The notes under the pieces: model-generated | What the model saw: only the letters and a program-made list of their open reading frames with translations | Databases searched by the model: none | What the model was told of the DNA's origin: nothing | Sequence record: NZ_CP023509.1 | Source of the DNA: a plasmid | DNA: 39,540 bases | Strand: one strand, 5' to 3' | Program-made: the position numbers and the translations under genes | Shown: positions 575 to 16,406 of the stretch, piece by piece | How positions within the stretch are numbered: position 1 is the first letter of the stretch | How the letters are laid out: the number at the start of each line of letters is the position of its first letter

Positions 575-629
575 GAAAGGGCGGCGGGGCTTCTCAGAGA
601 ATTTCTCTGAGAAGCCCCGCCGCCCTTTC
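575..629. terminator. Bidirectional intrinsic terminator (perfect ~25-bp inverted repeat)
   Basis: gaaagggcggcggggcttctcagaga att tctctgagaagccccgccgccctttc lies between the convergent genes 200..568(+) and 635..916(-). Confidence 0.7.
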
Positions 630-634
630 GTTGG

Positions 635-916
635 CTAGCTCTTAATCTTGACCGCCCAACCCGCTACGAAAGCCGGGTTATTAGGCTTCAGATTCGACCG
701 GCTGGCGACGATTACCCGGCACCCCGCGTCTTCCAGAAGCCGCAACATTTCGAGTTGCTGCTCTTGAAAGGTTCCCCCGCACCGTTGCGCCCATTCCGTG
801 AACTCCGTGATGAGTTTCTGGAGCCGGTCGGGGGTCGCCTCGTGACCGGTAACCTCCACCATTGGGTGATGAGTGTTAAGGCTCGCGTATCGCGTCCATA
901 CGTCATAAATTGCCAT
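635..916 (-). CDS. Hypothetical small protein, member of a five-copy ~90-aa paralog family (family A)
   Basis: 93 aa. Shares the EQQLEMLRLLEDAG..V..(G)W(A/M)VKF/TF C-terminal pattern with 985..1272, 1506..1787, 2523..2801 and 3033..3302. Lies immediately downstream of 985..1272 and is probably co-transcribed with it. Confidence 0.6.
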   Translation of the reverse strand: MAIYDVWTRYASLNTHHPMVEVTGHEATPDRLQKLITEFTEWAQRCGGTFQEQQLEMLRLLEDAGCRVIVASRSNLKPNNPAFVAGWAVKIKS

Positions 917-984
917 GTTGTGCCCTTCTGTCAGGTGGTGGGGCGGCGCATCATGCGCCGCCCCGTTGCTGGTGTGTCTAAGCT

Positions 985-1272
985 TTAGCCTTCGCTAAAG
1001 GTAATGGACCACTTAGCCGAAACGCCGGGCTTGGTGTAATCCGACTGGCTCGACATCACCACTACCCAACCTTCACGCTTGAGCTTGCACTCCATGACTT
1101 CGCGGTGCAGCTGTGCCGCCGCCGGAATGCCGACGCTAAAGCTTTCGCGGCAAACCTCCAACAGGCTACGCAAGCGGTCGGGAATCGGTGCCGGGCCGCT
1201 GAGGTTGAACGTCAGACGCTTAGTCTTCGGGGTGGTGCCGTAGTAACTTGCGGTGAGCTCGTACAGTGCCAT
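985..1272 (-). CDS. Hypothetical small protein, family A paralog
   Basis: 95 aa. The start codon is directly preceded by the conserved module (AGGAAUUAAUCAUCAUG). Confidence 0.6.
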   Translation of the reverse strand: MALYELTASYYGTTPKTKRLTFNLSGPAPIPDRLRSLLEVCRESFSVGIPAAAQLHREVMECKLKREGWVVVMSSQSDYTKPGVSAKWSITFSEG

Positions 1273-1440
1273 GATGATTAATTCCTAACTGATTCGCTGT
1301 CGGCTGCGCCGGTCGGCGCTACCGGTAAGGGTTTCGGGGTTTCCCTCCCCGTTCTTCCTTACACTTATAGTTTACCATATATGGAAGCATACAAACAAGC
1401 TGGAACGGTGGAAATTTCGAGGGAATTTCAGCGCGCCACC
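1273..1440 (-). promoter_or_regulatory. Conserved promoter + structured 5'-UTR module, copy 1. Sigma70-like TTGTTT-N18-TGgTAAACT, ~100-nt leader with two hairpins, SD AGGAA.
   Basis: Near-identical modules occur at 1788, 2802, 3303, 4585, 5585, 6261, 7852, 9664, 12117 (minus orientation) and 12241, 13640, 15000 (plus orientation). Core: ccttacacttatagtttaccatatatggaag...cttgttt. Confidence 0.6.
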
Positions 1441-1460
1441 GCACCGAAAAGCACGAAAGA

Positions 1461-1493
1461 GGGACGGCTCAGAGTTTCCTCTGAACCGCCCCC
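1461..1493 (-). terminator. Intrinsic terminator of 1506..1787 (conserved GGGACGGCTCAGAG/CTCTGAACCGCCCC hairpin)
   Basis: Imperfect GC hairpin immediately 3' of the gene. Same sequence family as the terminators at 2482 and 2985. Confidence 0.5.
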
Positions 1494-1505
1494 TGACCGC
1501 TTCGG

Positions 1506-1787
1506 TTAGTCGGTGAACGTCACCATCCAATGACCGTTTACCGGCTCGGTGTGTTCGGCTCCAAACGTGGAGGTCGTGCGAATAATCTTAAACCCCGCTT
1601 CTTCGAGCAAGCGCACCATTTCGAGGTTTTGCTCTTGCGGGCTACGGAAGCACTTAAGATAGGTCATCGTAGACCCCTCCAGCACCTTATAAACAGCTTC
1701 CACGCCGGGCGCCTGAGTCACGCCAATACGCACGCTCGCCTTATCGCCCTCGTCGGTGTAGATTGCCTTGAGGTGGAAAGTAGACAT
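1506..1787 (-). CDS. Hypothetical small protein, family A paralog
   Basis: 93 aa. PQEQNLEMVRLLEEAGFKII...NGHWMVTF is almost identical in pattern to 3033..3302. Has its own module copy upstream. Confidence 0.65.
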   Translation of the reverse strand: MSTFHLKAIYTDEGDKASVRIGVTQAPGVEAVYKVLEGSTMTYLKCFRSPQEQNLEMVRLLEEAGFKIIRTTSTFGAEHTEPVNGHWMVTFTD

Positions 1788-1950
1788 GATGTTGTTTCCT
1801 TACTGATTTGCTGTTCGGTGCCGCCGGTCGGCTGCACCGGTAGGGGTTTGGGTTGCTGTCCCGTGTTTTCCCTACACTTATAGTTTACCACATATGGAAG
1901 TGAGAAAACAAGGTGAGACGGCGGAACTTTTGAGGGAATTTCACCGCACC
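1788..1950 (-). promoter_or_regulatory. Conserved promoter/5'-UTR module, copy 2
   Basis: catgatgttgtttccttactgatttgctgttcggtgccgccggtcggctgcaccggtaggggtttgggttgctgtcccgtgttttccctacacttatagtttaccacatatggaag... Confidence 0.6.
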
Positions 1951-1967
1951 CTCTGCACGATAACCCC

Positions 1968-2471: not shown

Positions 2472-2481
2472 GATACGCCAC

Positions 2482-2515
2482 AGGGGCGGCTCAAGGTTTC
2501 CCCTGAGCCGCCCCT
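2482..2515 (-). terminator. Intrinsic terminator of 2523..2801 (perfect 12-bp stem AGGGGCGGCTCA/TGAGCCGCCCCT)
   Basis: GC hairpin immediately 3' of the gene on the minus strand. Confidence 0.65.
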
Positions 2516-2522
2516 ACATTAC

Positions 2523-2801
2523 TTATGCGCCGTGAAATTTAATCATCCAGCCGGTGATGAATCCTTCACAGGTAACCTGCCTTGAAAATTCGGGTACGTA
2601 ATTCGCTTCGAGAATCAGCTCTAGCATAATGTTCAGATGCTCACTCGCCGGAACCTTTACCGCCTGCATCCGCTTCCTATACCGCTGAACCATGTCGTTA
2701 ACATTTTCGGGAATCGGTGCGTCGCTTTCAATACTGAGTGAAACCCCGACCTCCCCACGGGGGTTAGGGGTGTACAGGGTCTTAATGAAAAACGGTTCCA
2801 T
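2523..2801 (-). CDS. Hypothetical small protein, family A paralog (most divergent)
   Basis: 92 aa. Ends ...CEGFITGWMIKFHGA. Module copy upstream. Confidence 0.55.
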   Translation of the reverse strand: MEPFFIKTLYTPNPRGEVGVSLSIESDAPIPENVNDMVQRYRKRMQAVKVPASEHLNIMLELILEANYVPEFSRQVTCEGFITGWMIKFHGA

Positions 2802-2968
2802 GATGTTGTTTCCTAACTGATTTGCTGGGCGGTGCCGCCGGTCGGCTGCACCGGTAGGGGTTTGGGTTGCTGTCCCGTGTTTTCCCTACACTTATAGTTT
2901 ACCACATATGGAACCATGAAAACAAGGTGAGGGCGGCGGATTCTTCGAGGGAATTTCAGCGCGCCAGG
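2802..2968 (-). promoter_or_regulatory. Conserved promoter/5'-UTR module, copy 3
   Basis: Near identical to copy 2. Confidence 0.6.
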
Positions 2969-2984
2969 TGTGCCAGAAAGTGCA

Positions 2985-3019
2985 AGGGGGCGGCTCAAGG
3001 TTTCCCCTGAGTCGCCCCT
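2985..3019 (-). terminator. Intrinsic terminator of 3033..3302 (same sequence family as 2482..2515)
   Basis: gggggcggctca aggtttcccc tgagtcgcccct. Confidence 0.6.
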
Positions 3020-3032
3020 GTGGTTGCTTCGG

Positions 3033-3302
3033 TTAGCCCGCGAAGGTCACCGCCCAATGACCGTTTACCGGGTCGTGCTGCTCTGCTCCAAATGTGGAGG
3101 TCGTGCTAACAATCGTGAAGCCCGCCCGCTCCAGCATCCAGAGCATTTCTAGGTTTTGCTCTTGCGGGGTATCGAAGAATTTAATGTAGCTCTTGGCTTC
3201 TTCCAATAGGGGGGTGAAGGCTTCCGCGCCGGGTGCTTCCTTCATGGCAAGCTGTACCCCTGCATTGTCGGCGTAGTTGCCCTTGAGCGTGAAAGTGGAC
3301 AT
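3033..3302 (-). CDS. Hypothetical small protein, family A paralog
   Basis: 89 aa. TPQEQNLEMLWMLERAGFTIVSTTSTFGAEQHDPVNGHWAVTF. Confidence 0.65.
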   Translation of the reverse strand: MSTFTLKGNYADNAGVQLAMKEAPGAEAFTPLLEEAKSYIKFFDTPQEQNLEMLWMLERAGFTIVSTTSTFGAEQHDPVNGHWAVTFAG

Positions 3303-3450
3303 GATTTCATTTCCTAACTGATTTGCTGTTCGGTGCCGCCGGTCGGCTGCACCGGTAAGGTGTTCGGGGTTTCCCGCCCCGATTTATCCTTACACTTATA
3401 GTTTACCATATATGGAAGCGTGTAGGTAAAGTGGGGCGGTAAAAATCCCG
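3303..3450 (-). promoter_or_regulatory. Conserved promoter/5'-UTR module, copy 4
   Basis: catgatttcatttcctaactgatttgctgttcggtgccgccggtcggctgcaccggtaaggtgttcggggtttcccgccccgatttatccttacacttatagtttaccatatatggaag. Confidence 0.6.
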
Positions 3451-3512
3451 CAAAAAAGGGCGGCCCACCCCCACACAGGGGCGAACCGCCTTAGCGCCCC
3501 TCAGAGGCTCAT

Positions 3513-3917: not shown

Positions 3918-3951
3918 GATATGTTTTCCTTTGCTTGTGGTTGGAGATGAA

Positions 3952-4002: not shown

Positions 4003-4584
4003 CTAGCTCAGCGCTTCGGTCGAAACCCCTAAGTCCTGAGCGAGGCGGGCGATAAACTTACGCGCCGGAACAAGCTTAGCGGTGCCGTATTCCTGCTTGA
4101 GGGCGTAGCGGGCGTATGCCTTCACGTTCTTACGGGTTACCGCCACGGGTTCGGCGGTTGCTTCGTCCAGCTTTCCCCACGGGTCGAACTCGTCATCTTC
4201 AAAGTCAAACCATACGGTGCGCGGGGCGGTAATTGCCTCAGACGGGCACCCGTTCCATGCCATGTAAACATCTTCGGTCAGCGGCACCTCCGGGGCTGCG
4301 TAGAGCTTTTCCCCGCTGGCACGGGTGCCGTTGGTGACAAGCTCACAGAACGGGTCAATGAACGGGGTCACAAGCTCCTCAATGATGGAGATGATGCCCT
4401 CCAGGGTACCCACCCCAAGGTAGGTTTTTTGTGCCGGAAGCCACGGGTTCGAGTCTGCAAACTCGCCCATGCGAAGAATTGCCGGGCGGTCGCACCACAG
4501 GGCGTAGGGCTTACCGCCGTTCTTCTCGATTTCCTCCACCTCGCGGGTGATAGCGGTGATGTCTGCGCCGGTCATCTTTGCCAT
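4003..4584 (-). CDS. Hypothetical protein, paralog of 11514..12116 (family B)
   Basis: 193 aa. Shares GGKPYA...SGEKLYAAPEVPLTEDVYMAWN with 11514..12116. C-terminal EPVAVTRKNVKAYARYAL resembles the PLPVTxENV motif of family C. Module copy upstream. Confidence 0.6.
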   Translation of the reverse strand: MAKMTGADITAITREVEEIEKNGGKPYALWCDRPAILRMGEFADSNPWLPAQKTYLGVGTLEGIISIIEELVTPFIDPFCELVTNGTRASGEKLYAAPEVPLTEDVYMAWNGCPSEAITAPRTVWFDFEDDEFDPWGKLDEATAEPVAVTRKNVKAYARYALKQEYGTAKLVPARKFIARLAQDLGVSTEALS

Positions 4585-4750
4585 GATGTTTGTTTCCTAA
4601 CTGATTTGCTGTTCGGTGTCGCCGGTCGGCTGCACCGGTAGGGGTTTGGGGGTTCCGCCCCGTTCTTCCTTACACTTATAGTTTACCACAAATAGAAGAA
4701 TACAAACAAGCTGTGGCGGTGGAAAATCTAGAAAAAATCCCCCTGCAAAC
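4585..4750 (-). promoter_or_regulatory. Conserved promoter/5'-UTR module, copy 5
   Basis: Module sequence with -10 variant TATTTGTGGTAAACT. Confidence 0.55.
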
Positions 4751-4828: not shown

Positions 4829-5584
4829 CTAACCCTCGACCGGGTTCAGCTCCACGCGCCAATCATAGGTTGGGTTCTCCCACCGCACGATACGTTCAGC
4901 GAAGCGGCGCACGTTCTCCACGGTCACAGGCAACGGGTGAATGTGTCGCCAGACCGGGGCCGGGCTGTCCAGGGGTTCAAACTCGCGCATGGTGTCGTCT
5001 TCGTTGTGGCACATGCTCGGCTTGTCGGTGAACCACTTCCAGGCGGCCATGTTCTTACCTTCTTCATGGCTAAACATTTCTTCCGGGGTGCAGAAGCGGC
5101 ACAGTCCCCAATCTTCGAGCTGTTCGACCAATTCGGGAAGGGTGCCCGTCCACTGGCGGGCTTTATCGCCGTCTGCAAAGGCCTGTACTCGGTAGACCCG
5201 ATCGCTTCCCGCTGCGGCGGGCTCTGCGGTCATTTCAACGCTCCAGGGTTCCCCGTCGCTTGCCTCAGCGGTGATGTAGTGGACGTAATTTTCAACGTTC
5301 GCGCGGGTCACAGGCAACGGGTGAATGTGCGGAAAGAACTTACCGCCGCCGGGTGCCGGGCGACTGAAGGGGTAGGTTTCGGTCGCTTCCTCTTCGCTGA
5401 GGTCTTGGGGGCTGATTCCGCGGGCGCGGTCAGTGAACCATTCCCACCCAATGCCCATAATGCGGCGGTTAAACGGCGCGTCCTGATTCTTCTGTGCCCA
5501 CTGCACAATGTCGGCCAGGGTGCCGGCGTATTCGGTGATGGTTTCGCCAATGGTGGCGCGAATGGTAAACAGCTGGTAAGTCAT
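4829..5584 (-). CDS. Hypothetical protein with internal tandem duplication, family C (PLPVTxENV motif)
   Basis: The ORF track runs to 5635, but the conserved leader places the start at the ATG 5582-5584 (MTYQLF...), giving ~251 aa. Two repeats each carry WxWFTD and HPLPVT(R/V)(A/E)NV motifs. Homologous to 5808..6260. Confidence 0.6.
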   Translation of the reverse strand: MTYQLFTIRATIGETITEYAGTLADIVQWAQKNQDAPFNRRIMGIGWEWFTDRARGISPQDLSEEEATETYPFSRPAPGGGKFFPHIHPLPVTRANVENYVHYITAEASDGEPWSVEMTAEPAAAGSDRVYRVQAFADGDKARQWTGTLPELVEQLEDWGLCRFCTPEEMFSHEEGKNMAAWKWFTDKPSMCHNEDDTMREFEPLDSPAPVWRHIHPLPVTVENVRRFAERIVRWENPTYDWRVELNPVEG

Positions 5585-5750
5585 GATGTTATGTCCTTGT
5601 CTGATTTGCTGTTCGGTGCCGCCGGTCGGCTGCACCGGTAAGGTGTTCGGGGTTCCGCCCCGTCGTCCCTACACTTATAGTTTACCACATATGGAAGTAT
5701 ACAAACAAGCTGGAACGGCGGGGATTTTGGGGAAATTTCGCCCCGAAACC
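5585..5750 (-). promoter_or_regulatory. Conserved promoter/5'-UTR module, copy 6
   Basis: catgatgttatgtccttgtctgatttgctgttcggtgccgccggtcggctgcaccggtaaggtgttcggggttccgccccgtcgtccctacacttatagtttaccacatatggaag. Confidence 0.6.
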
Positions 5751-5807: not shown

Positions 5808-6260
5808 TTAGAGAACTTCCCTCAGCTCAACCCCCCACCGTACAGAAGGGTCTTCCTTGGTCATGGTGTAGTGAACGTAGTTGCCGACATTCTCCACCGT
5901 GTGCGGCATGGGGATTACACGCCGCCATGAAATGACGGGGAAAATATCGCCATTATCAAGCTCCAACACCTGCACCCCTTCATCTGCTGTTTTATACAGC
6001 TGATGAACCATTCGACTGTTTGCCCCGAAGAGTTCCCGCACTTCCCGCACATAATCAGTGAACCATTCGTGGCACGTCACCCGCTCCTCTGTCCCGCGCC
6101 GGTAGGCAATGAATGGGCGAGAGAAGCGCACAATATTGTGTTGCTCCATCTGCTGCACAATGTCGGCCAGAGTGCCAGTCGTGACCTTCTCCCCGTCCTG
6201 TCCGTCCTTGGACAAGAAAACGCTGTAGACCCGATCGCTGGCTTCCTTGATGGTGTTCAT
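5808..6260 (-). CDS. Hypothetical protein, family C (single-repeat version)
   Basis: 150 aa. DRVYSVF..TGTLADIVQQME, WFTD and IPMPHTVENVGNYVHY match both repeats of 4829..5584. Confidence 0.6.
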   Translation of the reverse strand: MNTIKEASDRVYSVFLSKDGQDGEKVTTGTLADIVQQMEQHNIVRFSRPFIAYRRGTEERVTCHEWFTDYVREVRELFGANSRMVHQLYKTADEGVQVLELDNGDIFPVISWRRVIPMPHTVENVGNYVHYTMTKEDPSVRWGVELREVL

Positions 6261-6420
6261 ATTCAGCCCCTTCTGCTATGTGTCAGCCGCGCCTATTGGC
6301 TCAGCTGGTAAGGGTTCCAGGGTTTCCCTCCCCGGTCTGTCCTTACACTTATATTCTAGCACAAGTAGAAACGTATAAACAAGGTGGGGCGGCGGATTCA
6401 GAGCATAAAAAAGTTCCCCC
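6261..6420 (-). promoter_or_regulatory. Conserved promoter/5'-UTR module, copy 7 (diverged 3' part; -10 TAGAAT)
   Basis: ggtaagggttccagggtttccctccccggtctgtccttacacttatattctagcacaagtagaaacgtataaacaagg. Confidence 0.5.
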
Positions 6421-7504: not shown

Positions 7505-7520
7505 GATTTTCTGCTCCTTC

Positions 7521-7568
7521 TGATGCAGTCATTGCATAATGCAATGATAGCACTCTGCAATGATAGCA
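7521..7568. promoter_or_regulatory. parA promoter-operator region: palindrome TCATTGCATAATGCAATGA plus two direct repeats TGCAATGATAGCAC
   Basis: Sits immediately upstream of the parA start. The palindrome core matches the long palindromes at 17566 and 18681. Confidence 0.55.
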
Positions 7569-7647: not shown

Positions 7648-7851
7648 CTAGCGGGCGTTCTCTTCTACAATTTTCCAGAACTCATCTACGGTGACCTTGC
7701 AAGCGAACCCTTCATCAACATCACCGAGAACCTTCTCAGCGATTGCGTCAATGTCGAACTCTGCCCGTGCATCTTCCACGTCGCCATGCTCGATAGGTTC
7801 GATAATTTCGCGGAAAATTGCCTCATCAACGCGGCTGTACTTGCGGGTCAT
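7648..7851 (-). CDS. Small highly acidic protein (67 aa), unknown function
   Basis: About one third of residues are D/E (DEAIFREIIEPIEHGDVEDARAEFDIDAIAEK...). Has its own module copy and an SD GGAAGGA. Confidence 0.55.
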   Translation of the reverse strand: MTRKYSRVDEAIFREIIEPIEHGDVEDARAEFDIDAIAEKVLGDVDEGFACKVTVDEFWKIVEENAR

Positions 7852-8012
7852 TGTGTTTTCCTTCCATTGGAGTTAGTCAGTCCGTCCAGGATTGGGCGGT
7901 GCCGGTAAGGCTTCCGGGGTTTCCCTCCCCGGTTTGTCCTTACACTTATAGTGTACCACAAATAGAAGCATACAAACAAGCTGGAGCGGCGAAAAACCTA
8001 GAAAAAAATCCC
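7852..8012 (-). promoter_or_regulatory. Conserved promoter/5'-UTR module, copy 8 (-10 TACACT)
   Basis: gtaaggcttccggggtttccctccccggtttgtccttacacttatagtgtaccacaaatagaagcatacaaacaagctgg. Confidence 0.5.
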
Positions 8013-8030: not shown

Positions 8031-8073
8031 AAAGCTTCGGCACTGAACCTAATAGGTTCAGTGCCGAAGCTTT
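8031..8073. terminator. Bidirectional terminator (18-bp perfect stem, A/T flanks)
   Basis: aaagcttcggcactgaacct aat aggttcagtgccgaagcttt. Confidence 0.65.
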
Positions 8074-8075
8074 AA

Positions 8076-8900
8076 TGAAAGTCCCTTAACCCGTCACCGG
8101 GCTAAGGGAAATGTTAGGAAAGTTCCGCCCCATAAAAGTAACAGTACATTCCTCAATGAAAGCCCACCCCCTTGTGAGGGGGTGAGAAGGAAAGAAAGGG
8201 CGCTCCCGATATGTTCAAGAATCCCCCTCAATGAAAGCCCCGCAGCTTGTGTGGCTACGGGGAATGCGCATAGAGAATGAGGCTCCCATTATAAAAATGT
8301 TCGTCCCTCAATGAAAGCCCCGCACCCCCTGCCTGTAGCACACAACCACAGAGCGGTAAGGTGGGGGAATGAGAATCAAACAGTCGGCTTCTTCCCACAA
8401 AATTTCAATTCCTCAATGAAAGCCCCGCCACCGTAAGAGCAGCGGGGAAGAAGGCCACTGTAAAGCTCAAGATAACTTACAATGTCTGCCTCAATGAAAG
8501 CCCCTTAACCCGTCACCGGGTCAAGGGGAAGAGGAATAAGTGCAAGCACCCACCACGATAAGTTCCATTCCTCAATGAAAGTCCTTCCGCCCCACCAGCG
8601 GGGGCGAAGCGGAAGGAAAAGGGTGGAGGAGAAAAGCTCTTCCAACGAAAATATTCACTCCTCAATGAAAGCCCCGCCGCCCGCAAGCGGCGGGGAATAC
8701 ACATAGAGAAGGGCCTCCCGCTAGATAACGTTGATTCCTCAATGAAAGCCCCTTAACCCGGTGCCGGATTAGGGGAAAGAGAAGAAAGCAAATGCTCCCT
8801 GAAACTACTATTGGAGTCCTCAATGAAAGCCCGCCCCCTGCAAGGGGGGGCGAGAAAAGGGATAGCCTCGCAAAACTTAGCCACTTCCAAGGTTCCCTAT
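8076..8900. repeat. Tandem array of 10 structured units (73-104 bp each). Each unit has a conserved leader (CCTCAATGAAAGCCCC) plus a GC hairpin of variable sequence, then GGGGAA and a variable 30-45-nt tail.
   Basis: Unit starts at ~8076, 8151, 8224, 8306, 8410, 8489, 8570, 8660, 8737 and 8818. Hairpins differ in sequence but keep their pairing (for example ccccgccgc..gcggcgggg, ccccttaacccg..cgggtcaagggg, tccttccgc..gcggaagga). No conserved ORF. On the minus strand each hairpin is followed by CTTTCATTGAGG. Confidence 0.7.
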
Positions 8901-8988: not shown

Positions 8989-9663
8989 TTAGCGAATCCT
9001 GCGGTTCCGCGGCGGTTGCGCTGCGGCGCGAACTTCATTCACACAGATTTCCAGGCTATCGCTCTGCGAATCGGCGTAGGCGTAGGCATCAAGTTCATTA
9101 CCCATCATGGCCGCATAACTGTTCACGATGTAACCGTAGTACTTGGTGCAGTTAGGGACGTCGATTTCATGAACCCATCCCAACGTGTCACCTTCTTCAT
9201 TGCAGACCCTCCACAAGCCCGGCGGGCACGGGTCAACGTTGAGCGCGTAGAGATGTTCAGCTCGAAGAAGGCGAGTGTCGAACGGGTAGTCTCGCTCAAT
9301 CTGGCGAGAAAGCCAGCGTAGCCACTGCGCAAAGCTTTTCAGGAAACCCGCTTCCTGCCTCCGGTGCTGATCTTTGCGGATTTCTTCGGCTTCTCGCTCG
9401 AAAAATTCGATGACCTCATCAGCGGCGAAGAAAACGGTCGGGTGCTGGTCTTTGCTGTGAATGGTGATGCACTCTGCCTTCTCACCCAATGCTTCGGCAA
9501 TGGGGTTAGGGTCGCGGTCCATATTGAGCCAGAGCCTCTTCCCCCTGCTGCGAAAGTACCAACGGTTATCGAACGGCCCGTTCCCAAATGGTGAAGGCCC
9601 GGCAATGTGTGCCGAGTACGTGCGGCCCTTTTCCTTTCGAATGTACTTGATGCTGTGTGACAT
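8989..9663 (-). CDS. Hypothetical protein (224 aa)
   Basis: Long ORF with its own module copy and leader (cagaaggagaaacagcATG). No recognisable motif. Confidence 0.55.
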   Translation of the reverse strand: MSHSIKYIRKEKGRTYSAHIAGPSPFGNGPFDNRWYFRSRGKRLWLNMDRDPNPIAEALGEKAECITIHSKDQHPTVFFAADEVIEFFEREAEEIRKDQHRRQEAGFLKSFAQWLRWLSRQIERDYPFDTRLLRAEHLYALNVDPCPPGLWRVCNEEGDTLGWVHEIDVPNCTKYYGYIVNSYAAMMGNELDAYAYADSQSDSLEICVNEVRAAAQPPRNRRIR

Positions 9664-9800
9664 GCTGTTTCTCCTTCTGATTTGCTGTTCGGCTGCGCCG
9701 GGTTCGGTGCCGCCGGTAAGGGTTCCGGGGTTTCCCGCCCCGTGTTTTCCTTACACTTATATTCTACCATAAATTAAAGAATATAAGTAGGTTTCACCCC
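9664..9800 (-). promoter_or_regulatory. Conserved promoter/5'-UTR module, copy 9 (-10 TAGAAT)
   Basis: catgctgtttctccttctgatttgctgttcggctgcgccgggttcggtgccgccggtaagggttccggggtttcccgccccgtgttttccttacacttatattctaccataaatt. Confidence 0.5.
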
Positions 9801-9859
9801 CACAATTTCCCCAAAAAAATAAGCCCCCCACTCGCAAAGCGAGAGAGGGGCTGCACCTT

Positions 9860-10456: not shown

Positions 10457-10495
10457 TGTTTTCTCCTAACTGATTTGCTGGCGGCTGCGCGGCGG

Positions 10496-10672
10496 CTAAT
10501 GCAGAGCAACCATAAGTGCCAGATAGCCGGTGTCCACCGCCAAGAACGGCCAGAGCAGCCAGTACCAGGCCCCGCGCCGCAGCCCCCACCCACGGGCGAG
10601 GACAAAATACCACGGGGCAAGCAAGAACACCAGCGCGAGGACGAACAGCCCAATAACCACTAAAACTTTCAT
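10496..10672 (-). CDS. Very small membrane protein (58 aa; hand-translated, not in the ORF track)
   Basis: MKVLVVIGLFVLALVFLLAPWYFVLARGWGLRRGAWYWLLWPFLAVDTGYLALMVALH. SD AGGGAAAA. Lies between the 63-aa TM gene and the family D gene. Confidence 0.35.
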   Translation of the reverse strand: MKVLVVIGLFVLALVFLLAPWYFVLARGWGLRRGAWYWLLWPFLAVDTGYLALMVALH

Positions 10673-10678
10673 TTTTCC

Positions 10679-10870
10679 CTATTGCTCCCACTTAGAGGCC
10701 AAAAAAGCACAGTAGCAAAAGCCGACAAACAGCGCCGCCGCAAAAACCAGCCACACCGGATTCATAGAGCTTTTCTCCCCATCTTCCCCATTGGAGAGCC
10801 TTCCGAATAGGGCGGCGATTACAGCGAGCACAAGCACGATAGCCGCCAGCAACAAGAAGAAGCCGGTCAT
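10679..10870 (-). CDS. Small membrane protein (63 aa, 2 TM)
   Basis: Hydrophobic. Overlaps the upstream HTH gene by 4 nt (ATGA), which suggests translational coupling. Confidence 0.5.
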   Translation of the reverse strand: MTGFFLLLAAIVLVLAVIAALFGRLSNGEDGEKSSMNPVWLVFAAALFVGFCYCAFLASKWEQ

Positions 10871-11157
10871 TTCTTCTCGCTCTTGACTGCCACACCGTGC
10901 GGGCGGGGGGTACCGCTTTTATTCCAACCCCACGCTCGGGAATGCGGCGGGTTTTCCTCGCGCCAGTCCATCCAGCGGCGCGCCTCGGATTCGAGATAGC
11001 CCCAAGTGCTGCCCGTCAGTGAGGCGGGGTGAATGTCGCCCTTTTCTCGGGCGTTGTTCACCGTCCTAGTATCCACTCCGGCCATTGCCGCAACCTGTTT
11101 ACTGGACAAATACACGATGAACTTGCCCTCTTGTTCCTTCTTCTTTTTCTTTGCCAT
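10867..11157 (-). CDS. Lys-rich helix-turn-helix DNA-binding protein (excisionase/MerR-like HTH_17)
   Basis: 96 aa. LSSKQVAAMAGVDTRTVNNAREKG. N-terminal KKKKKEQE. Confidence 0.55.
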   Translation of the reverse strand: MAKKKKKEQEGKFIVYLSSKQVAAMAGVDTRTVNNAREKGDIHPASLTGSTWGYLESEARRWMDWREENPPHSRAWGWNKSGTPRPHGVAVKSEKK

Positions 11158-11513: not shown

Positions 11514-12116
11514 TTAGTCCTGTTCGGTCTGCTGCGCGAAGTGCTCGGTCAGCTCTTCTAGTACCTGACGTGCCGGGATCAGCTCGATTCGCTCATCCTG
11601 ATACTGCGTGAACACTTCTTCGGTCATGTACACGCTCAGGTTCTCCACGGTCAGCGGAAGTGGTTCCGAATGAACAGTCAGGCGCTCCATATCTTCCCAT
11701 TCCTCACTGTGCGGGTTGCTCAGGTCGTCCTCGTCGGCGTAACCAGCATCCACAAGAACGGTTCGGGGGCCAGGCTCACCGGTTAGCTCATCGTGGTTCC
11801 ACCAGATGTAAACATCTTCCTTCACGGGGACAGAAGGTGCGGCGTACAGCTGCTCTCCTGAGTCACGGTGCCCGCCACTGATGGTCTCACAGAAGTCTTT
11901 CTGTGCCGGTTTCGGGTCGGACTGGAACCAATGCAGAATGTCCTCCAGAGTGCCGAACTCTTCCTTCCACAGGGTCTTGATGGTGTGGTCCCATGCCCAC
12001 GAATCACGCTCGGTGAAGACGACGGCGTAAGGCTTCTCGCCTGCCGCTTCCATCTTCTCGACAGTGCAGGTCAGGGCCTTCAGGTGGCGTTCTTCCACAT
12101 TCCAGGTGGTCGTCAT
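11514..12116 (-). CDS. Hypothetical acidic protein, family B paralog (also carries the family C C-terminal motif)
   Basis: 200 aa. GEKPYA...SGEQLYAAPSVPVKEDVYIWWN matches 4003..4584. EPLPLTVENLSVY matches family C. Module copy upstream. Confidence 0.6.
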   Translation of the reverse strand: MTTTWNVEERHLKALTCTVEKMEAAGEKPYAVVFTERDSWAWDHTIKTLWKEEFGTLEDILHWFQSDPKPAQKDFCETISGGHRDSGEQLYAAPSVPVKEDVYIWWNHDELTGEPGPRTVLVDAGYADEDDLSNPHSEEWEDMERLTVHSEPLPLTVENLSVYMTEEVFTQYQDERIELIPARQVLEELTEHFAQQTEQD

Positions 12117-12240
12117 GATGTTGTTTCCTTACTGATTCGCTGTTCGGTTGCACCGATTGGTACTACCGGTAAGGGTTTCGGGGTTTCCCTCCCCGGTTCA
12201 TCCTTACACCTATATTCTACCATACATAGAAGAAAATAAA
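12117..12240 (-). promoter_or_regulatory. Conserved promoter/5'-UTR module, copy 11
   Basis: catgatgttgtttccttactgattcgctgttcggttgcaccgattggtactaccggtaagggtttcggggtttccctccccggttcatccttacacctatattctaccatacatagaag. Confidence 0.55.
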
Positions 12241-12359
12241 AACCCGCTTTGCCTATTATTTTTTCACAATTCCCCCCGCTCAACCCCTTATTATATATTT
12301 CTACTTATGCTATAGTATAAGTAGGGGTAACCCCACCCCTTACAACCCCTGGAGGAACC
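12241..12359 (+). promoter_or_regulatory. Divergent promoter region for 12360..12845. Contains a module-like -10 core inside the palindrome TACTTATGCTATAGTATAAGTA.
   Basis: ctatagtataagtaggggtaacccc resembles the module core ggtagaatataagtgtaggg. SD GGAGG before the ATG. Confidence 0.4.
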
Positions 12360-12845
12360 ATGAACAACGACGACTACACCCTCACGATTACCACGGCATC
12401 AGGCGTAACGGCACACCTGACCGGCACCCTGGAAGAACTCTTTACCCGCGCGGCAGAAGAGCGTGAGGGCACGGTACACGTGCCCGACAACATGCACTAT
12501 TGCCTCCCCTCTTCGGTATGGGCTGATGATTACCACGACTTCATTCTTAATGAAAACGGTGAACTGGTGCAGCCGAAGGAACCGAGCGGCTGGGACGCTT
12601 TCGGCTACCGCCACTACGGCGAAGAAGAAGGTGACCACCCGGAAGACTCTACCGCCCGCCTGTTGAGCATCTACCGCGACATTCGCACTGATGATTTTGA
12701 TCTGGACGAGCTAGAGGATTTGACCCCGGATTATCGCGTGTGGGCACATGAGAAGCCCCTGCCGTACACCGCCGAAACTTTGTTGGAGTACGCCCGGTGG
12801 CTCTTTGGTGCCGGGGCGAATATTACCCTATCGCCTGCACCGTAA
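12360..12845 (+). CDS. Hypothetical acidic protein, distant family C member
   Basis: 161 aa. TGTLEELF and KPLPYTAETLLEYARW motifs. Confidence 0.55.
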   Translation: MNNDDYTLTITTASGVTAHLTGTLEELFTRAAEEREGTVHVPDNMHYCLPSSVWADDYHDFILNENGELVQPKEPSGWDAFGYRHYGEEEGDHPEDSTARLLSIYRDIRTDDFDLDELEDLTPDYRVWAHEKPLPYTAETLLEYARWLFGAGANITLSPAP

Positions 12846-12959
12846 CCGCACGCTTCGGTTTACCCGGGGGTAAATCGAAAAACCACACACGCGGCGGGGC
12901 GGCGCATCTAGGATTGAGTATGTCCCCTCCAAAAAATACGACAGAAGGAATAATTCATC

Positions 12960-13562
12960 ATGACCTCTTCATCTCAGAAGGTACGCTCTCATCCGTGGCT
13001 CACGGTTAGCTGCTTCGTCTTAAGCATGGGCTCCTTCTTCCTTGGGCTGGCGGGCTTGTGGCCTACCTACGGCCCTTCCCTCATTTTGGCGCTCTTCCTC
13101 ATTGCCGCCGGGCCGGTCATCACCTTTGGCAAGCGCGCCAACGTCGAGGCTACCGGATTCCGCACTGTAACGATCATGGCGACCGTCGCCTGCGGCCTGG
13201 TGTTCAGTAGCTTTCTCAACGCGGGACTGATTCAGTCTTCCGAAGATGCCGGCGCGGGCGCCACCGGCGGCTTTATGTTCCTTGCCGCCCTGGAGATGTG
13301 GGCCATCATTCGCCAGATGCAGCGAAGCGTTCCTGAGCTTATCGAGGGCCTGGATATGAAAATTGCGCTTTCTGCTGCGGCTGCGGCTGGCTCATTCGGT
13401 TTCTACGGCTTGCTGGCTCTGTCGCTCTTTTGTGCCGCTGGCTCCGTCGCTAGCTTGTGGTTCCGCGCGAAAGGCTGGAAGGTGGACATTACCGGGCTGT
13501 TCGCGTCGTGCGCGCTGGTGATGCTGTCGATTCTGGCGTTTGTGCCGTGGCTGGTTCGCTAG
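12960..13562 (+). CDS. Integral membrane protein (about 6 TM)
   Basis: 200 aa, hydrophobic. SD GAAGGAA. Confidence 0.6.
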   Translation: MTSSSQKVRSHPWLTVSCFVLSMGSFFLGLAGLWPTYGPSLILALFLIAAGPVITFGKRANVEATGFRTVTIMATVACGLVFSSFLNAGLIQSSEDAGAGATGGFMFLAALEMWAIIRQMQRSVPELIEGLDMKIALSAAAAAGSFGFYGLLALSLFCAAGSVASLWFRAKGWKVDITGLFASCALVMLSILAFVPWLVR

Positions 13563-13639
13563 CTTAGACTGAGGCACCAATAAAGGGGGGCGGGTACATG
13601 TTGTACCCGCCCCCCTTTATTGTGTGCCTTGATTCGGGG

Positions 13640-13791
13640 TGAGGTTTCCCTAAAAATCCCGCTGTCTCACCTTGTTTTCTTACTTCCACATGTGGTAGAA
13701 TATAAGTGTAGGGTAAGGATAGGGAAAATCCTTAACCTACCAGGTTGAGCCGCCCGGCTTAGCCTGCACCATAACAGAAGGAAAATAAATC
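13640..13791 (+). promoter_or_regulatory. Conserved promoter/5'-UTR module, plus-orientation copy (TTGTTT-N18-TGgTAGAAT; leader hairpin GUAGGGUAAGGAU/AUCCUUAACCUAC)
   Basis: ccttgttttcttacttccacatgtggtagaatataagtgtagggtaaggatagggaaaatccttaacctacc...gaaggaaaataaatcATG. Confidence 0.55.
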
Positions 13792-14001
13792 ATGGACTGG
13801 CTTCTCTTTATTATTGGCCTTTTTCCGATCGCATCTTTGTGCTTCATAGTGCTTGGCTCTATATTCTTTTGGTTACTTAGCATTTTTGATGATGTTGAGG
13901 ATTTCATAAATTTTGCAATCCGTCCCGCAATACTAGTACTCGCGGGATTTTCGATTATGCTCTGCATCCCCCTCCTCACCCTCCAGGTGCACCAGCGATA
14001 A
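13792..14001 (+). CDS. Small membrane protein (69 aa), AT-rich
   Basis: Two TM segments. First gene after the plus-orientation module. Confidence 0.5.
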   Translation: MDWLLFIIGLFPIASLCFIVLGSIFFWLLSIFDDVEDFINFAIRPAILVLAGFSIMLCIPLLTLQVHQR

Positions 14002-14033
14002 GTGCAGCCAACCCTCAACGGAAGGAACTTACT

Positions 14034-14609
14034 ATGGAACCCTTGTATATCCTTTTAGCAATTTCATTCTACACATTACCAATTATCATACCGTTTTTAT
14101 GGATAGAGCTTGAAATAAATGAAATACCGCAAAAAATAAAAAGCTTTATTCGCACTCGGCAGTCTATCGAGGTTGAAAATATCAAGAAAGAAAATATTAG
14201 TATTGACAACCTCAAATCATTCAATACACTAACTACACAGTCTTATATAGTTATCAACCCAAACTATGAAGATTTTGATGACTCACATTTTACGATACAG
14301 TGGAAAAAAGCGTCTTCACCCCACAGCCTGAAATCAATGTTTTCCTGCAATAACGGAAAGTGGAAATGCTATGGGGGATTCGACGGGTCACAGAAGGTTG
14401 AGCGTCGAGTTCAAGGCGATACCGTCATTGATTTTGTGCCTTCAAATGATAGTTCCTCGCACATTACGAACGACATATGGCATTATTTCCAGTGCTCCCG
14501 GCGACAATTGCGAAAAGAAGAGAGAGCAGGTGAGGTTCACCGCCACGGTAGATACTGCAAGCGGATTAAATCAGTCAAGCACGTGACCTGGCACATTAGA
14601 AGTAAGTAG
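14034..14609 (+). CDS. Membrane-anchored Cys/His-rich protein, family D paralog 2 (AT-rich coding sequence)
   Basis: 191 aa. N-terminal TM. C-terminal IDFVPSNDSSSHITNDIWHYFQC...HRHGRYC...HVTWHIRSK. Confidence 0.6.
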   Translation: MEPLYILLAISFYTLPIIIPFLWIELEINEIPQKIKSFIRTRQSIEVENIKKENISIDNLKSFNTLTTQSYIVINPNYEDFDDSHFTIQWKKASSPHSLKSMFSCNNGKWKCYGGFDGSQKVERRVQGDTVIDFVPSNDSSSHITNDIWHYFQCSRRQLRKEERAGEVHRHGRYCKRIKSVKHVTWHIRSK

Positions 14610-14620
14610 GTGGTGAAATA

Positions 14621-14863
14621 ATGATTGAAAACTCTGACCCCCCGGCCCCTATTACCATTCTACTAACAGCTTTGATTTTCTTACCTATTATTTCACCTAT
14701 TATTGCCCCCCTACTTTTCATACTTAAAGAAATAATATCTGATATATATAAATATTTGCGGGAAGTAGAAAAACCTGACGGGTTAAACACCACAGATAAG
14801 TTCATAGTGTATGGTCTTCTTATCCTCGTCTTCGCCCTTATAGGCGTTTCTATTTTCTTATAG
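14621..14863 (+). CDS. Small membrane protein (80 aa), AT-rich
   Basis: Two TM helices. Confidence 0.5.
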   Translation: MIENSDPPAPITILLTALIFLPIISPIIAPLLFILKEIISDIYKYLREVEKPDGLNTTDKFIVYGLLILVFALIGVSIFL

Positions 14864-14866
14864 CAA

Positions 14867-14909
14867 GAAGTGGCCCACCCCATGTACGGGGTGGGCCACT
14901 TCGTTTTCT
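14867..14909 (+). terminator. Intrinsic terminator (15-bp stem + T-tract)
   Basis: gaagtggcccacccc atgtac ggggtgggccacttc gttttc. Near-identical to 15964..16005. Confidence 0.75.
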
Positions 14910-14999
14910 ATCAGTCACAAAAGTACCCGCAGCAGGGGGTGGTGTCAGGTCAGCAGTGCCTGGAGCCCGGAATTTTTCGTGATGATTTCGCCGCCATAG

Positions 15000-15123
15000 C
15001 TTGCATATATCATTCTCGATATGGTACACTATAAATGTAAGGTTGAGGGGAGGGAAAACCCTTGACCTGACCGGCGAAATCCACCCGGACAAGCCGAAAC
15101 CCACGACAGAAGGAAACAACATC
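15000..15123 (+). promoter_or_regulatory. Conserved promoter/5'-UTR module, second plus-orientation copy (TTGCAT-N18-TACACT)
   Basis: atggtacactataaatgtaaggttgaggggagggaaaacccttgacctgacc...gaaggaaacaacatcATG is the reverse complement of the minus-orientation module. Confidence 0.55.
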
Positions 15124-15771
15124 ATGCTTAGCTCCCTGTTCACCTCCTCAACCCCACCCCCAAACGAAAACGAATTTGCGGTTAACCTGGTCCTCTTGTT
15201 CTTCCTCCTAATCCTCATGTTATTCGCCGCCTTCGCTGTGTGGCACGATTCTGAAACTGCTCACAAAATCAAGAACAAGATGACATGGCATTTAGTAACG
15301 ACGATTGAAAAAGAGAGCATTGACAAAGAAACACGCCTTGAAAATCTGAAAATCCGCGACTGGAACCCATTTATCAAAAAAGCATACATCACCAAGGACC
15401 CGACCTATGCTGACGTTCTCCGCCACCGCCCCCACATCAGATTCAAGGCCAAAAGCCCGGTTCAAAAGTGGGGCGAAGAACTCGAATCAGTCTTCTCTTA
15501 TCAGGACGGCGATACCTGGTCAATGGATTATCCATCCTTGTACTGGAACGGTGACCCTGAAAACGCTGCACCGGGAGAAAGGCTTAACAGTGTTATCCAC
15601 ATCGTCCCTTCAGATAAGGATTACTCCTACTGCACGACTGAGATTTGGCATTATCGCCTCTGCAACAGGAAGCAGCTCAAAGAAGAGGGCAAGGATCATG
15701 AGCATACCGGCATGTGTGAGCTCGTCAATTCCGTTAAGCATGTGACCTGGCATATTAAGGTGAAGGGGTAG
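15124..15771 (+). CDS. Membrane-anchored Cys/His-rich protein, family D paralog 3
   Basis: The track ORF 15001..15771 is probably over-extended, because the conserved leader and SD place the start at the ATG 15124 (MLSSLF...). C-terminal IHIVPSDKDYSYCTTEIWHYRLC...HEHTGMC...HVTWHIKVKG. Confidence 0.6.
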   Translation: MLSSLFTSSTPPPNENEFAVNLVLLFFLLILMLFAAFAVWHDSETAHKIKNKMTWHLVTTIEKESIDKETRLENLKIRDWNPFIKKAYITKDPTYADVLRHRPHIRFKAKSPVQKWGEELESVFSYQDGDTWSMDYPSLYWNGDPENAAPGERLNSVIHIVPSDKDYSYCTTEIWHYRLCNRKQLKEEGKDHEHTGMCELVNSVKHVTWHIKVKG

Positions 15772-15775
15772 CGTC

Positions 15776-15961
15776 ATGTATGAGAGTGTTCTAACTGAAC
15801 TTTCATGGTTTGCAGCAGGATATTTTGTTACCCTCTTCAGCCTGGCCTGGATTGCGGCCTACTACCGGGAACCTGAGATTATCAAAAAAGGCGCCATAGC
15901 TTTCCCTGTGGCTTGGTTTACCCTTGAATTTGTTATGCGCGTCCTGCTGCTGATGCTGTAA
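15776..15961 (+). CDS. Small membrane protein (61 aa)
   Basis: Two TM helices. In the same position as 14621..14863 in the sister module. Confidence 0.5.
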   Translation: MYESVLTELSWFAAGYFVTLFSLAWIAAYYREPEIIKKGAIAFPVAWFTLEFVMRVLLLML

Positions 15962-15963
15962 AC

Positions 15964-16005
15964 GAAGTGCCCCACCCCGTACATGGGGTGGGGCACTTCT
16001 TTTTC
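15964..16005 (+). terminator. Intrinsic terminator (15-bp stem + TTTTT)
   Basis: gaagtgccccacccc gtacat ggggtggggcacttc tttttcc. Confidence 0.75.
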
Positions 16006-16007
16006 CA

Positions 16008-16406
16008 TCAGTCAAAAAGGAACCCATTCGGCGGGCGGAAATAACGCCTCGAAATGACCGCGTGGCGCTTCGCGTCCTCCATCGTCACCGCGCCACTCTC
16101 GCACCCTCGCGCGAAATCCTCCAGCATGTCCAGGGTTGGTCTCTCACCCGGTGCAGCTGGTTCAAGGGACACCCGGTTGCGGACATCCTCTCGTTCAAAG
16201 GTGGAGCCAATAAAGCCTCTGACCGCTTCGACGGTCAGAGGTAAGCGGGGCGGTTCACATGCAGGGTTTGCCGGTACCGCCCACTCAACCAGGCCTGCTA
16301 GAGTGTCGGTTGCTCGCGCGGTGATGTCCCATTGATGCGTGTCAGGTTCGCGCGATTCTATCGTGACGGTAAACAACTGCTCCGCCTGATTCTCTGTCAT
16401 CATCAT
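16008..16406 (-). CDS. Hypothetical protein, family C-like (PRLPLTVEAVRGF motif)
   Basis: 132 aa. SD AGGAGGAA. Starts 13 nt downstream of 16420..17361, so it is in the same operon. Confidence 0.5.
   Translation of the reverse strand: MMMTENQAEQLFTVTIESREPDTHQWDITARATDTLAGLVEWAVPANPACEPPRLPLTVEAVRGFIGSTFEREDVRNRVSLEPAAPGERPTLDMLEDFARGCESGAVTMEDAKRHAVISRRYFRPPNGFLFD

Follow-up and report, generated by a model that had tools for sequence, protein, structure and literature searches.

The window analysed here, 39,540 nt in length, is a complete circular MOBF conjugative plasmid of Rothia mucilaginosa (39.5 kb, junction 39540|1), and it carries an island in which one compact module, a predicted promoter followed by a two-hairpin leader, is repeated in 12 full copies at the heads of gene cassettes. 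In natural variants of the plasmid, cassettes are gained, lost and placed behind other module copies through homologous recombination and conversion between these copies. We consider it probable (roughly 0.6) that this is the leading-region accessory island of the MOBF plasmid and that the cassettes sharing the module form an establishment regulon.

Using a covariance model (CM), 12 full module copies were detected (E 1e-19 to 1e-31). The module core, TGGTANANTATAAGTGTARGG, occurred 12 times at up to 2 mismatches and never in 100 shuffles. The first-pass annotation had counted at least 13 copies, 10 on the minus and 3 on the plus strand. The 10 minus-strand copies stand, each ending at a start codon (1272, 1787, 2801, 3302, 4584, 5584, 6260, 7851, 9663, and 12116), but only 2 full copies lie on the plus strand (13658-13794 and 14987-15126). 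The third, reported at 12241, has a different short leader and a marginal score (29 bits, E about 1e-3) and is a promoter relative only, which leaves 12 full copies, 1 partial copy, 1 remnant of the 3' part, and 1 weak promoter-like match (18505-18668). The truncated remnant at 10457-10500 proved real by alignment. The modules and the genes behind them are:

1270..1412, minus: copy 1, heads 95-aa gene 985-1272; CM 150 bits; two-hairpin fold, z -2.6
1785..1925, minus: copy 2, heads 93-aa gene 1506-1787 (family A); CM 146 bits; z -3.2
2799..2940, minus: copy 3, heads 92-aa gene 2523-2801, followed after a hairpin by an HNH endonuclease gene, 1968-2471 (HNH_3 match); CM match, fold
3300..3443, minus: copy 4, heads 89-aa gene 3033-3302 (family A); CM 157 bits; z -3.5
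4582..4723, minus: copy 5, heads 193-aa acidic gene 4003-4584 (superfamily I); CM match
5582..5722, minus: copy 6, heads 251-aa tandem-domain gene 4829-5584 (superfamily I); CM match
6258..6396, minus: copy 7, heads 150-aa gene 5808-6260 (superfamily I); CM match
7849..7993, minus: copy 8, heads 67-aa acidic gene 7648-7851; CM match
9661..9804, minus: copy 9, heads 224-aa gene 8989-9663; CM match, fold
12114..12250, minus: copy 10, heads an operon that starts with 11514-12116 (200 aa) and runs to an HTH_17 gene, 10867-11157, and small membrane genes; CM match
13658..13794, plus: copy 11, heads AT-rich operon 13792-14863; CM match; fold, z -4.5
14987..15126, plus: copy 12, heads 15124-15771 (membrane family D) and 15776-15961; CM match, fold
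12272..12362, plus: promoter-only relative with a different short leader, heads 161-aa gene 12360-12845; CM 29 bits
10457..10500, minus: 3' remnant (3' half of P2 and SD; repeat family D9, 84% identity), joined to the operon upstream of it and located before 9860-10456

The module is about 140-170 bp long, and pairwise nucleotide identity among the copies is 66-95%. Its predicted promoter consists of a -35 TTGTTT, an 18-nt spacer and an extended -10 TGnTA(A/G/C)A(C/A)T, hexamers that score below a strict sigma-70 consensus scan, and is accompanied by phased A/T tracts and an almost invariant ATAAGTGTARGG. The first bases of the leader form hairpin P1, P2 follows immediately, and a standard SD-ATG region is left unpaired; alignment shows that homology between modules ends exactly at the ATG. 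The promoter and SD-ATG consensus first described for the module (-35 TTGTTT, 18-nt spacer, -10 TGgTA(A/G/C)A(C/A)T) and its coordinates agree with alignments A1 and A2; promoter, start site and co-regulation of the cassettes are predictions from the sequence. In the collections scanned, the module core was found only in the Rothia plasmid family, and the module is absent from the closest deposited relatives.

The two-hairpin leader is supported by covariation. In two data sets, 90.8% and 90.3% of the alignment cells were paired, compared with 32-50% when the partners were slid, and 12 and 13 of the 21 base pairs showed changes on both sides; the stems of copy 11, for example, carry the compensatory changes GGAU/AUCC. 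The same minimum-energy fold with a free SD was obtained for 10 of the 12 leaders (z-scores -1.4 to -4.5), and the P1 loop AGGGAAA is kept even where its stem covaries. No Rfam match overlapped any module at E values up to 1, so the leader does not belong to a known family.

The genes behind the modules had been described as 13 unrelated genes, which BLASTP and alignments contradict: most group into about four paralogous orphan superfamilies, accompanied by singletons. Family A has 5 members, family D has 3, and superfamily I has 6 or more genes, with 7 domain segments in alignment A7. The encoded proteins are small, mostly acidic orphans, most of them 8-26% identical in global alignments, and across the plasmid family they form about 12 superfamilies with about 30 subclusters at 80% identity. 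The GC content does differ among cassettes, as the first-pass annotation had noted (36-43% in genes 13792-14863 versus 56% for the plasmid). Searches of the cargo gave no match to anti-restriction, SOS inhibition, ssDNA-binding or any known family; none of the recognised establishment genes (ard, ssb, psiB, methylases) was detected in any cargo, and these searches turned up an HNH endonuclease domain only. Most cassettes end in a hairpin terminator, and the near-identical terminators reported earlier were recovered. A few transcription units have hairpin terminators in their interior as well, ahead of the HNH gene and ahead of 635-916, and the island contains a hairpin array:

1461..1493, minus: cassette-end hairpin, near-identical at 2483-2515 and 2987-3019 (family D18, 82-97% identity)
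14867..14902, plus: cassette-end terminator, near-identical at 15964-15999 (pair I10, 95%; terminator scan)
8060..8860, minus: 10-hairpin array with variable stems and CUUUCAUUGAGGA after every hairpin (family D7), between cassettes 8 and 9; copy number differs among relatives

Rothia mucilaginosa, identified as the host from exact protein matches, is an abundant human oral commensal. The plasmid family has been recovered repeatedly in metagenome assemblies, with the Human Microbiome Project indicated by the name of at least one sample. Among 8 plasmid variants, the presence and absence of cassettes differ. Variant L018 lacks the 251-aa cassette, and its single module at this place is a clean chimera of copies 5 and 6 (m4584 and m5584) with the crossover within the conserved -10/+1 core. 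In L018, L023, and L024 the copy-8 cassette is replaced by a 101-aa and a 261-aa cassette with the right junction inside the module, and L017 lacks the cassette of the 150-aa gene (copy 7), the junction lying just upstream of the -35. In addition, one module is a within-plasmid mosaic. Because it is repeated 12 times the module provides portable homology, and a crossover inside shared homology is as expected for homologous recombination. Module and cargo identity were uncorrelated (rho 0.06). Among 217 copies, 186 pairs had the same cargo behind modules less than 85% identical, and in another 129 pairs modules sharing 93% identity or more headed unrelated cargo. Altogether, the chimeric module and these discordant pairs bear out the earlier proposal that cassettes are shuffled by recombination between modules. 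Part of the variation among related plasmids, however, has no module boundaries.

The other backbone domains of the plasmid are RepA, ParA, T4CP, and DUF4913, in addition to the TrwC domain of the relaxase. The transfer features are:

33995..39019, minus: MOBF (TrwC-type) relaxase-helicase gene (Pfam TrwC, E 1.7e-76)
80..109, plus: candidate nic/oriT core, GGGTGTGG, in a segment 100% conserved in 8 plasmids

Across the circular junction, the cassette island lies upstream of the relaxase gene and is co-directional with it, which places it in a presumed leading-region position next to the presumed oriT. Ten of the 12 modules point to the relaxase-proximal end, and the 2 remaining full modules and the partial one point away from the putative oriT; the par locus is inside the island. 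The GGGTGTGG at 80..109 presumably resembles the GGTGT|GG site of the F plasmid. It lies on the strand that would bring the island in first, in the same orientation as in F, and the nic-like 8-mer is reversed in R. amarae; we treat this conserved motif as a candidate and a weak lead. The window is circular and the island adjoins the upstream region of the MOBF relaxase gene, a location consistent with the suggestion that the module serves a conjugative element as its expression platform, but the establishment or anti-defence function that came with this suggestion could be assigned to no cargo gene.

Repeated upstream sequences that head establishment genes have been published outside Actinobacteria, as the CUP of pKM101 and the EGeRS of pLS20/p576 (PMC6294495, PMC8708921), with further analogues of principle in PMC6289460 and PMC11541004; our literature search returned no description of such an architecture for actinobacterial plasmids. 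The feature by which CUP and EGeRS are recognised, the same upstream sequence before several clustered units, is present here as 12 full copies within 15 kb, and by analogy with the IncN plasmid pKM101 and with pLS20/p576 we infer an actinobacterial "establishment regulon". Like the Rothia module, the CUP is a conserved sequence repeated ahead of several transcription units, in its case about seven that hold leading-region establishment genes, and coordinated control resembling zygotic induction has been ascribed to it. However, CUP sequences are longer than 400 bp, occur in Proteobacteria and bind ArdK/ArdR, whereas, compared by description, the Rothia module is about 140-170 bp, has 12 copies and carries a covarying two-hairpin leader; no ArdK-type regulator was identified on the Rothia plasmid. 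EGeRS2 of the Bacillus pumilus plasmid p576 (PMC6294495, PMC8708921) also stems from a Gram-positive conjugative plasmid and defines the Reg576 regulon through a shared upstream sequence, a double-strand-type promoter before several clustered, variable establishment operons. It differs in that its promoters, four in number, carry dual TTATCCC operators to which an RHH repressor belongs, whereas the 12 copies on the Rothia plasmid also include a conserved structured leader and a standard RBS. TTATCCC is not in the module consensus, the scan of plasmid ORFs showed no RHH domain, and no repressor or operator was identified for the module. EGeRS1 of the pLS20 family (PMC8708921) shares with the module conserved, highly structured sequences directly before the RBS of several establishment operons, and both may act either as RNA or as ssDNA. 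EGeRS1 elements are 420-750 bp with no detectable sigma-A promoter, and pLS20 transfers the non-template strand; in contrast, the Rothia module is short and promoter-like, and 10 of its 12 copies would be transcribed from the presumed T-strand.

Under the regulon reading, the modules would cause the cassettes to be expressed together, as a regulon whose products are small orphan proteins that evolve fast and would be needed as the plasmid enters a new cell. The module promoter would be of the ordinary double-stranded type, the 5'-terminal hairpins may shield the mRNA or act as a shared regulatory handle, and the open standard ribosome-binding region would give uniform, efficient translation. 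Counting against this reading are the hexamers that fall below the strict sigma-70 scan, the reversed 8-mer in R. amarae, the cargo that matched no establishment family, the modules that point away from the putative oriT, the par locus within the island, and the closest deposited relatives, which do not carry the module. Stem-loops at the 5' end are known to stabilise bacterial mRNAs, such as those with the ompA and ermC/aprE leaders. These have, like the predicted Rothia transcript, a hairpin at the 5' end and then an open RBS; the likeness is one of function only, with no shared sequence family, and the Rothia start is itself predicted.

The repeat could instead be a passive by-product of tandem gene duplication, each module being the ordinary promoter of its gene with nothing collective about it. 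The grouping of most cargo in a few paralog families (A, D, and superfamily I) agrees with this, but modules 66-95% identical precede proteins that are mostly 8-26% identical (copies 2 and 3 share 95% of their module and 26% of their protein), unrelated cargos carry near-identical modules and identical cargos can carry modules 65% identical, stem pairing is maintained by compensatory changes and module homology halts at the ATG. We thus regard duplication alone as quite improbable. Less probable still is a MITE-like mobile repeat or part of an integron-like site-specific system: the layout is cassette-like and its content varies among relatives, but none of the 40 scanned ORFs gave a match to an integrase, transposase or recombinase domain, the module ends showed neither terminal inverted repeats nor target duplications (alignments inspected by eye), and homology stops at the start codon, with the crossover within the shared homology. 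Integron gene cassettes were rejected on the missing integrase domain and this crossover.

Whether the hairpins act in RNA is a separate matter. They might work in the transferred single DNA strand, as a Frpo/ssi-type promoter or in priming of the complementary strand, and the leading-region position, the T-strand being the presumed template for most modules, and similar hairpin energies on both strands are compatible with this; the counts of G-U (60) and A-C (46) pairs do not settle which strand folds. Frpo/ssi of F and ColIb-P9 (Masai & Arai 1997; PMC11541004) likewise lie in the leading region, oriented to oriT, with several copies heading early genes. However, the Frpo hairpin recreates the -35/-10 as a DNA duplex, whereas T-strand folds of the Rothia module form no conserved duplex there, the hairpins are placed after the predicted start rather than around the hexamers, and the 2 oppositely oriented full copies have the same structure; we find an ssDNA role improbable. 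A Frpo-type ssDNA promoter was rejected because template-strand folds pair 9-24 of the 30 promoter bases with partners that differ in each copy. A leader that is an active cis-regulatory RNA, as a regulator-binding site, a put-like antitermination element or a sensor, would place control of the regulon after initiation. The maintained P1 loop, the terminators within transcription units with the 10-hairpin array, and the missing Rfam match favour it, but no candidate RNA-binding protein was found, and each cassette has its own promoter, so that antitermination is not obviously needed; we hold this to be rather unlikely. Equally doubtful is a broader proposal, in which an undescribed cis-acting RNA leader and the invariant -10/+1 block would together switch a regulon coupled to transfer, and the repetition of the leader would also provide an integrase-free exchange platform diversifying orphan anti-defence proteins. 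With such a switch, a plasmid or host factor would time an expression burst or drive read-through of the many hairpins of the island.

Natural variants show that cassettes are shuffled through the repeated regulatory module itself, and recombination between modules offers a simple way, with no integrase, to a "pan-plasmid" repertoire. If the regulon reading holds, establishment regulons built on a repeated upstream sequence would extend from IncN and Bacillus plasmids to Actinobacteria, in an unusually compact form of high copy number and with a covariation-supported RNA leader missing from Rfam. The cargo superfamilies are a ready list of candidates for new anti-defence or establishment functions.

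The sequence that precedes the genes of the cassette island is a genuine repeat. Its core, TGGTANANTATAAGTGTARGG, occurs 12 times in the window at up to 2 mismatches and never in 100 shuffles, and a covariance model trained on the alignment of the copies recovered 12 full-length copies of the approximately 140-nt module, with E values of 1e-19 to 1e-31. Over the 128 nt located 5' of the start codons the copies are 66-95% identical pairwise (mean 76%), and the similarity between copies stops at the ATG. A first-pass annotation had described one promoter-plus-leader module heading many genes, and its coordinates and motif descriptions were right apart from the copy at 12241, which shares only a related promoter with the module and has a different leader. 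The annotation had also reported near-identical terminator hairpins behind several genes, and these were confirmed. In addition, the model produced two weak promoter-only matches, at 12272-12362 (+) and 18505-18668 (-), and a 3' remnant of the module is present at 10457-10500. Read 5' to 3' on the sense strand, the module is composed of the following elements:

Phased A/T tracts, then TTGTTT, then an 18-nt spacer with an invariant TT inside
TGnTA(A/G/C)A(C/A)T, then ATAAGTGTARGG, the most conserved block in the entire module
Hairpin P1, with the stem GUARGG/CCYUAC around an inner stem-loop and a loop that is usually AGGGAAA
Hairpin P2, directly after P1, with approximately 10 bp and a loop of 4 nt
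An unpaired 3' tail, AACAGCAAAUCAGUUAGGAAACAACAUCAUG

The hexamers of the module fail a strict E. coli-type consensus scan. The TANNNT form is usual in Actinobacteria, and our prediction of a promoter is based on this form together with the extended -10. If the usual 7 nt separate the -10 from the start site, the first transcribed base would be the opening G of P1, and the RNA would begin with a hairpin. A possible palindromic operator was also considered for the spacer, which is palindromic in only two copies.

To evaluate the leader fold, we counted paired cells in alignments that were fitted to the model, which favours structure: in the module copies from the window and 8 relatives, 90.8% of the cells formed standard pairs, against 32-49% in controls in which the partners were slid 1-3 columns, and both sides had changed in 12 of 21 pairs. 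A further 136 copies, an independent set taken from a metagenome scan and likewise fitted to the model, gave 90.3% pairing and both-side changes in 13 of the 21 pairs. Compensatory changes include GGGG/CCCC to GGAU/AUCC. Despite the model-fitted alignments, the slid controls and these compensatory changes are convincing, and the sequence evidence indicates that the leader structure is selected. Wobble counts, which bear on the strand of action, were 60 G-U cells versus 46 A-C cells. F-like plasmids use Frpo single-strand promoters (PMC11541004). A promoter of this type is not supported for the module, as the template DNA strand folds without a conserved duplex over the -35 and -10. An Rfam scan returned spurious palindrome matches only.

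The backbones of the 8 relatives are 90-99% identical, and their cassette content differs as follows (L017, L018, L020, L023 and L024 are related plasmids):

251-aa cassette: absent in L018
150-aa cassette: absent in L017
67-aa cassette: 101-aa and 261-aa cassettes instead in L018, L023 and L024
224-aa and 198-aa genes: 152-aa and 209-aa genes instead in L018
AT-rich operon: absent in L020

The 193-aa and 150-aa genes of L018 are separated by a single module, which is a clean chimera: its gene side is identical to m4584 (the module of the 193-aa gene) and its upstream side to m5584 (the module of the 251-aa gene), with the switch point within the shared ACACTTATAGTTTACCACA core. A crossover of this kind marks homologous recombination between two modules. 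The junction in L017 lies just upstream of the -35, and the deletion of a 161-aa gene ends within the 3' end of that gene. Variation bounded by modules, as the first-pass annotation had proposed, is thus seen in the L018 crossover and not in the 161-aa gene deletion. We then collected 225 module copies, which head approximately 12 cargo superfamilies, and compared the 217 with cargo of at least 60 aa. In 186 pairs the cargo was the same (at least 90% amino acid identity) and the modules were less than 85% identical, while 129 pairs combined unrelated cargo with modules at least 93% identical. One plasmid carries a family B gene whose module is, over its first 107 nt, 95% identical to that of an unrelated membrane gene on the same plasmid. 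Module identity and cargo identity are not correlated within the window (rho 0.06). Altogether, the discordant pairs, this within-plasmid mosaic and the rho value show that modules and cargo have separate histories. MITE and integron models were rejected because no recombinase was found in the 40 ORFs scanned and terminal repeats were not seen on inspection.

In the collections scanned, the module was found only in one family of 35-42-kb plasmids. The island had no megablast match in PLSDB or among phage records, and a core-pattern scan of genome contigs yielded no relatives and 16 single matches in unrelated non-actinobacterial genomes and MAGs, which we judge to be chance. Neither the module nor a comparable multi-copy upstream repeat was detected in the nearest deposited plasmids: Rothia amarae p1 and Kocuria pTGY1127_2_1, which are the closest MOBF plasmids on deposit, and Arthrobacter pA44BH1, whose T4SS is related.

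The module-bearing plasmid, of 39,540 bp, was assigned to Rothia mucilaginosa (locus tags CO690_) by exact look-up of its proteins. Besides an SLT+CHAP cell-wall hydrolase, the Pfam scan identified these conjugative-plasmid parts:

6848-7504: ParA
23767-25314: RepA_C replication protein, adjoining 22-bp iterons
31137-32849: type IV coupling protein, followed by DUF4913
33995-39019, minus strand: TrwC/MOBF relaxase-helicase, 1674 aa

The tandem 22-bp repeats (GGTGGGGGGTTTAGCCGCGTTA) at 23331-23492, just upstream of the RepA_C gene, comprise at least 4 tandem units plus partial copies (7 overlapping 44-nt copies in the repeat listing) and are probably the iterons of the replication origin. Perfect long inverted repeats at 33238-33300 and 574-630 (arms of 31 nt and 28 nt, respectively) each sit between convergent gene ends and are probably bidirectional terminators; they yield spurious microRNA-family matches in Rfam.

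Eight related 38-42-kb metagenome-assembly contigs align through the window ends with position 39540 joined directly to position 1, which shows that the window is a complete circular plasmid. Through this junction the island adjoins the relaxase gene on its upstream side, its genes (600 to approximately 12100, minus strand) being directly upstream of that gene and co-directional with it. In MOBF plasmids such as F and R388, oriT precedes the relaxase operon, and transfer into the recipient begins with the DNA beyond oriT. From the relaxase adjacency and this layout, we infer that the island occupies a leading-region position next to a putative oriT. The segment 80-109 is 100% conserved among 8 plasmids (background approximately 70-100%) and contains GGGTGTGG, which we take to resemble the F nic site GGTGT|GG. 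The strand of this motif would have the plus strand transferred, with the island entering first, and the F-like 8-mer is a candidate, if weak, lead for the leading-region placement; the R. amarae match to it has the wrong orientation. In R. amarae p1 (L026), the region 12652-17007 encodes a large orphan N-6 DNA methylase together with an HNH endonuclease; these genes precede the MOBF relaxase in the same direction, and the repeated module is missing. This content fits that described for leading regions (PMC11541004), and it is comparable to that of the R. mucilaginosa plasmid with a different organisation.

The cargo proteins, mostly small and acidic, had been described as unrelated; they fall instead into three groups plus three singletons:

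Family A (approximately 90 aa): genes 635, 985, 1506, 2523, 3033
Superfamily I (motifs GTL..IV and PLPxTxENV): 4003-4584, 4829-5584 (tandem), 5808-6260, 11514-12116, 12360-12845, 16008-16406
Family D (membrane-anchored): 9860, 14034, 15124
Singletons: 7648, 8989, 13792

The seven aligned domain segments of superfamily I correspond to six genes, one being a tandem duplication. Pfam, NCBIfam, PHROGs and PDB sequences gave no informative match to the cargo (PDB searches were empty), and a word-index homology search found only 3 clusters. A full HMMER profile search with superfamily I retrieved only 24 cluster representatives among 1.84 billion, and the 10 of these that were scanned contained no Pfam domain explaining the match, so this superfamily is apparently private to the plasmid lineage. 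The family A structure model (moderate confidence) had no informative structural neighbour, and that of family B (pLDDT 57) was too poor for use. Since neither database matches nor structural neighbours were informative, the anti-defence or establishment label derives solely from position. The operon at 13792-14863, which module 11 heads, is AT-rich, as the first-pass annotation had noticed: its GC content is 36-43%, against 56% for the whole plasmid. Genes 15124 and 9860, both of higher GC, are paralogs of its 191-aa gene. The low GC of the operon, these paralogs and its absence in L020 suggest recent acquisition or differing amelioration.

The gene at 200-568 (+) encodes a 122-aa protein with a C-terminal HTH-like segment, and its promoter (140-170) reads TAAACTATGTGTAGG, a sequence similar to the module core TAAACTATAAGTGTAGG and 99% conserved in the relatives; we consider this protein a candidate for regulating the module. 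The ORF probably starts at 200 and not at the listed 155. A small HTH_17-type protein is encoded at 10867-11157 (-), inside the module 10 operon. Its HTH region shares 30% identity with the N-terminal part of a 335-aa membrane protein, 17605-18612 (-), whose promoter matches the module model weakly. Three related long palindromes (core ATGCAGTCATTGCATAATGCAATGACTGCAT), one at the parA promoter (7517-7568) and two either side of gene 17605-18612 (17551-17612 and 18674-18744), look like putative operators of a second, separate plasmid regulon. At 8060-8860 (minus strand) there is an array of 10 units, approximately 75-105 nt apart, each a GC-rich hairpin with its own stem sequence followed by the conserved tail CUUUCAUUGAGGA. 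The array has no Rfam match and its copy number differs among related plasmids. Its minus-strand hairpins are more stable in 8 of the 10 units and contain 20 G-U pairs, which suggests that the array acts at the RNA level.

Repeated upstream sequences are known from other conjugative plasmids. Approximately 7 leading-region units of pKM101 are each preceded by ArdK-bound CUP repeats of more than 400 bp (PMC6289460, PMC6294495), Reg576 of p576 represses four strong promoters, resulting in zygotic induction (PMC6294495), and structured EGeRS1 elements of 420-750 bp lie upstream of variable establishment operons in the pLS20 family (PMC8708921). As a predicted double-strand promoter repeated before clustered variable genes, the Rothia module would work most like EGeRS2 or CUP. 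However, it is shorter, is present in far more copies, includes a covarying leader at the 5' end and a standard start of translation, and mostly precedes single-gene cassettes with closing hairpins; neither a repressor nor a known establishment gene was identified. Neither this plasmid nor an architecture of this kind in Actinobacteria turned up in literature searches, in agreement with the first-pass annotation. The repeat, its conserved fold, its relaxase-adjacent position and the recombination inside modules are solid descriptive findings. Functionally, the predicted promoter may give an expression burst on entry, the leader could serve as a stabiliser or regulatory handle, and the cargo may act in establishment or anti-defence. 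The principle of a repeated upstream sequence is already published; the feature described here is real and non-trivial.
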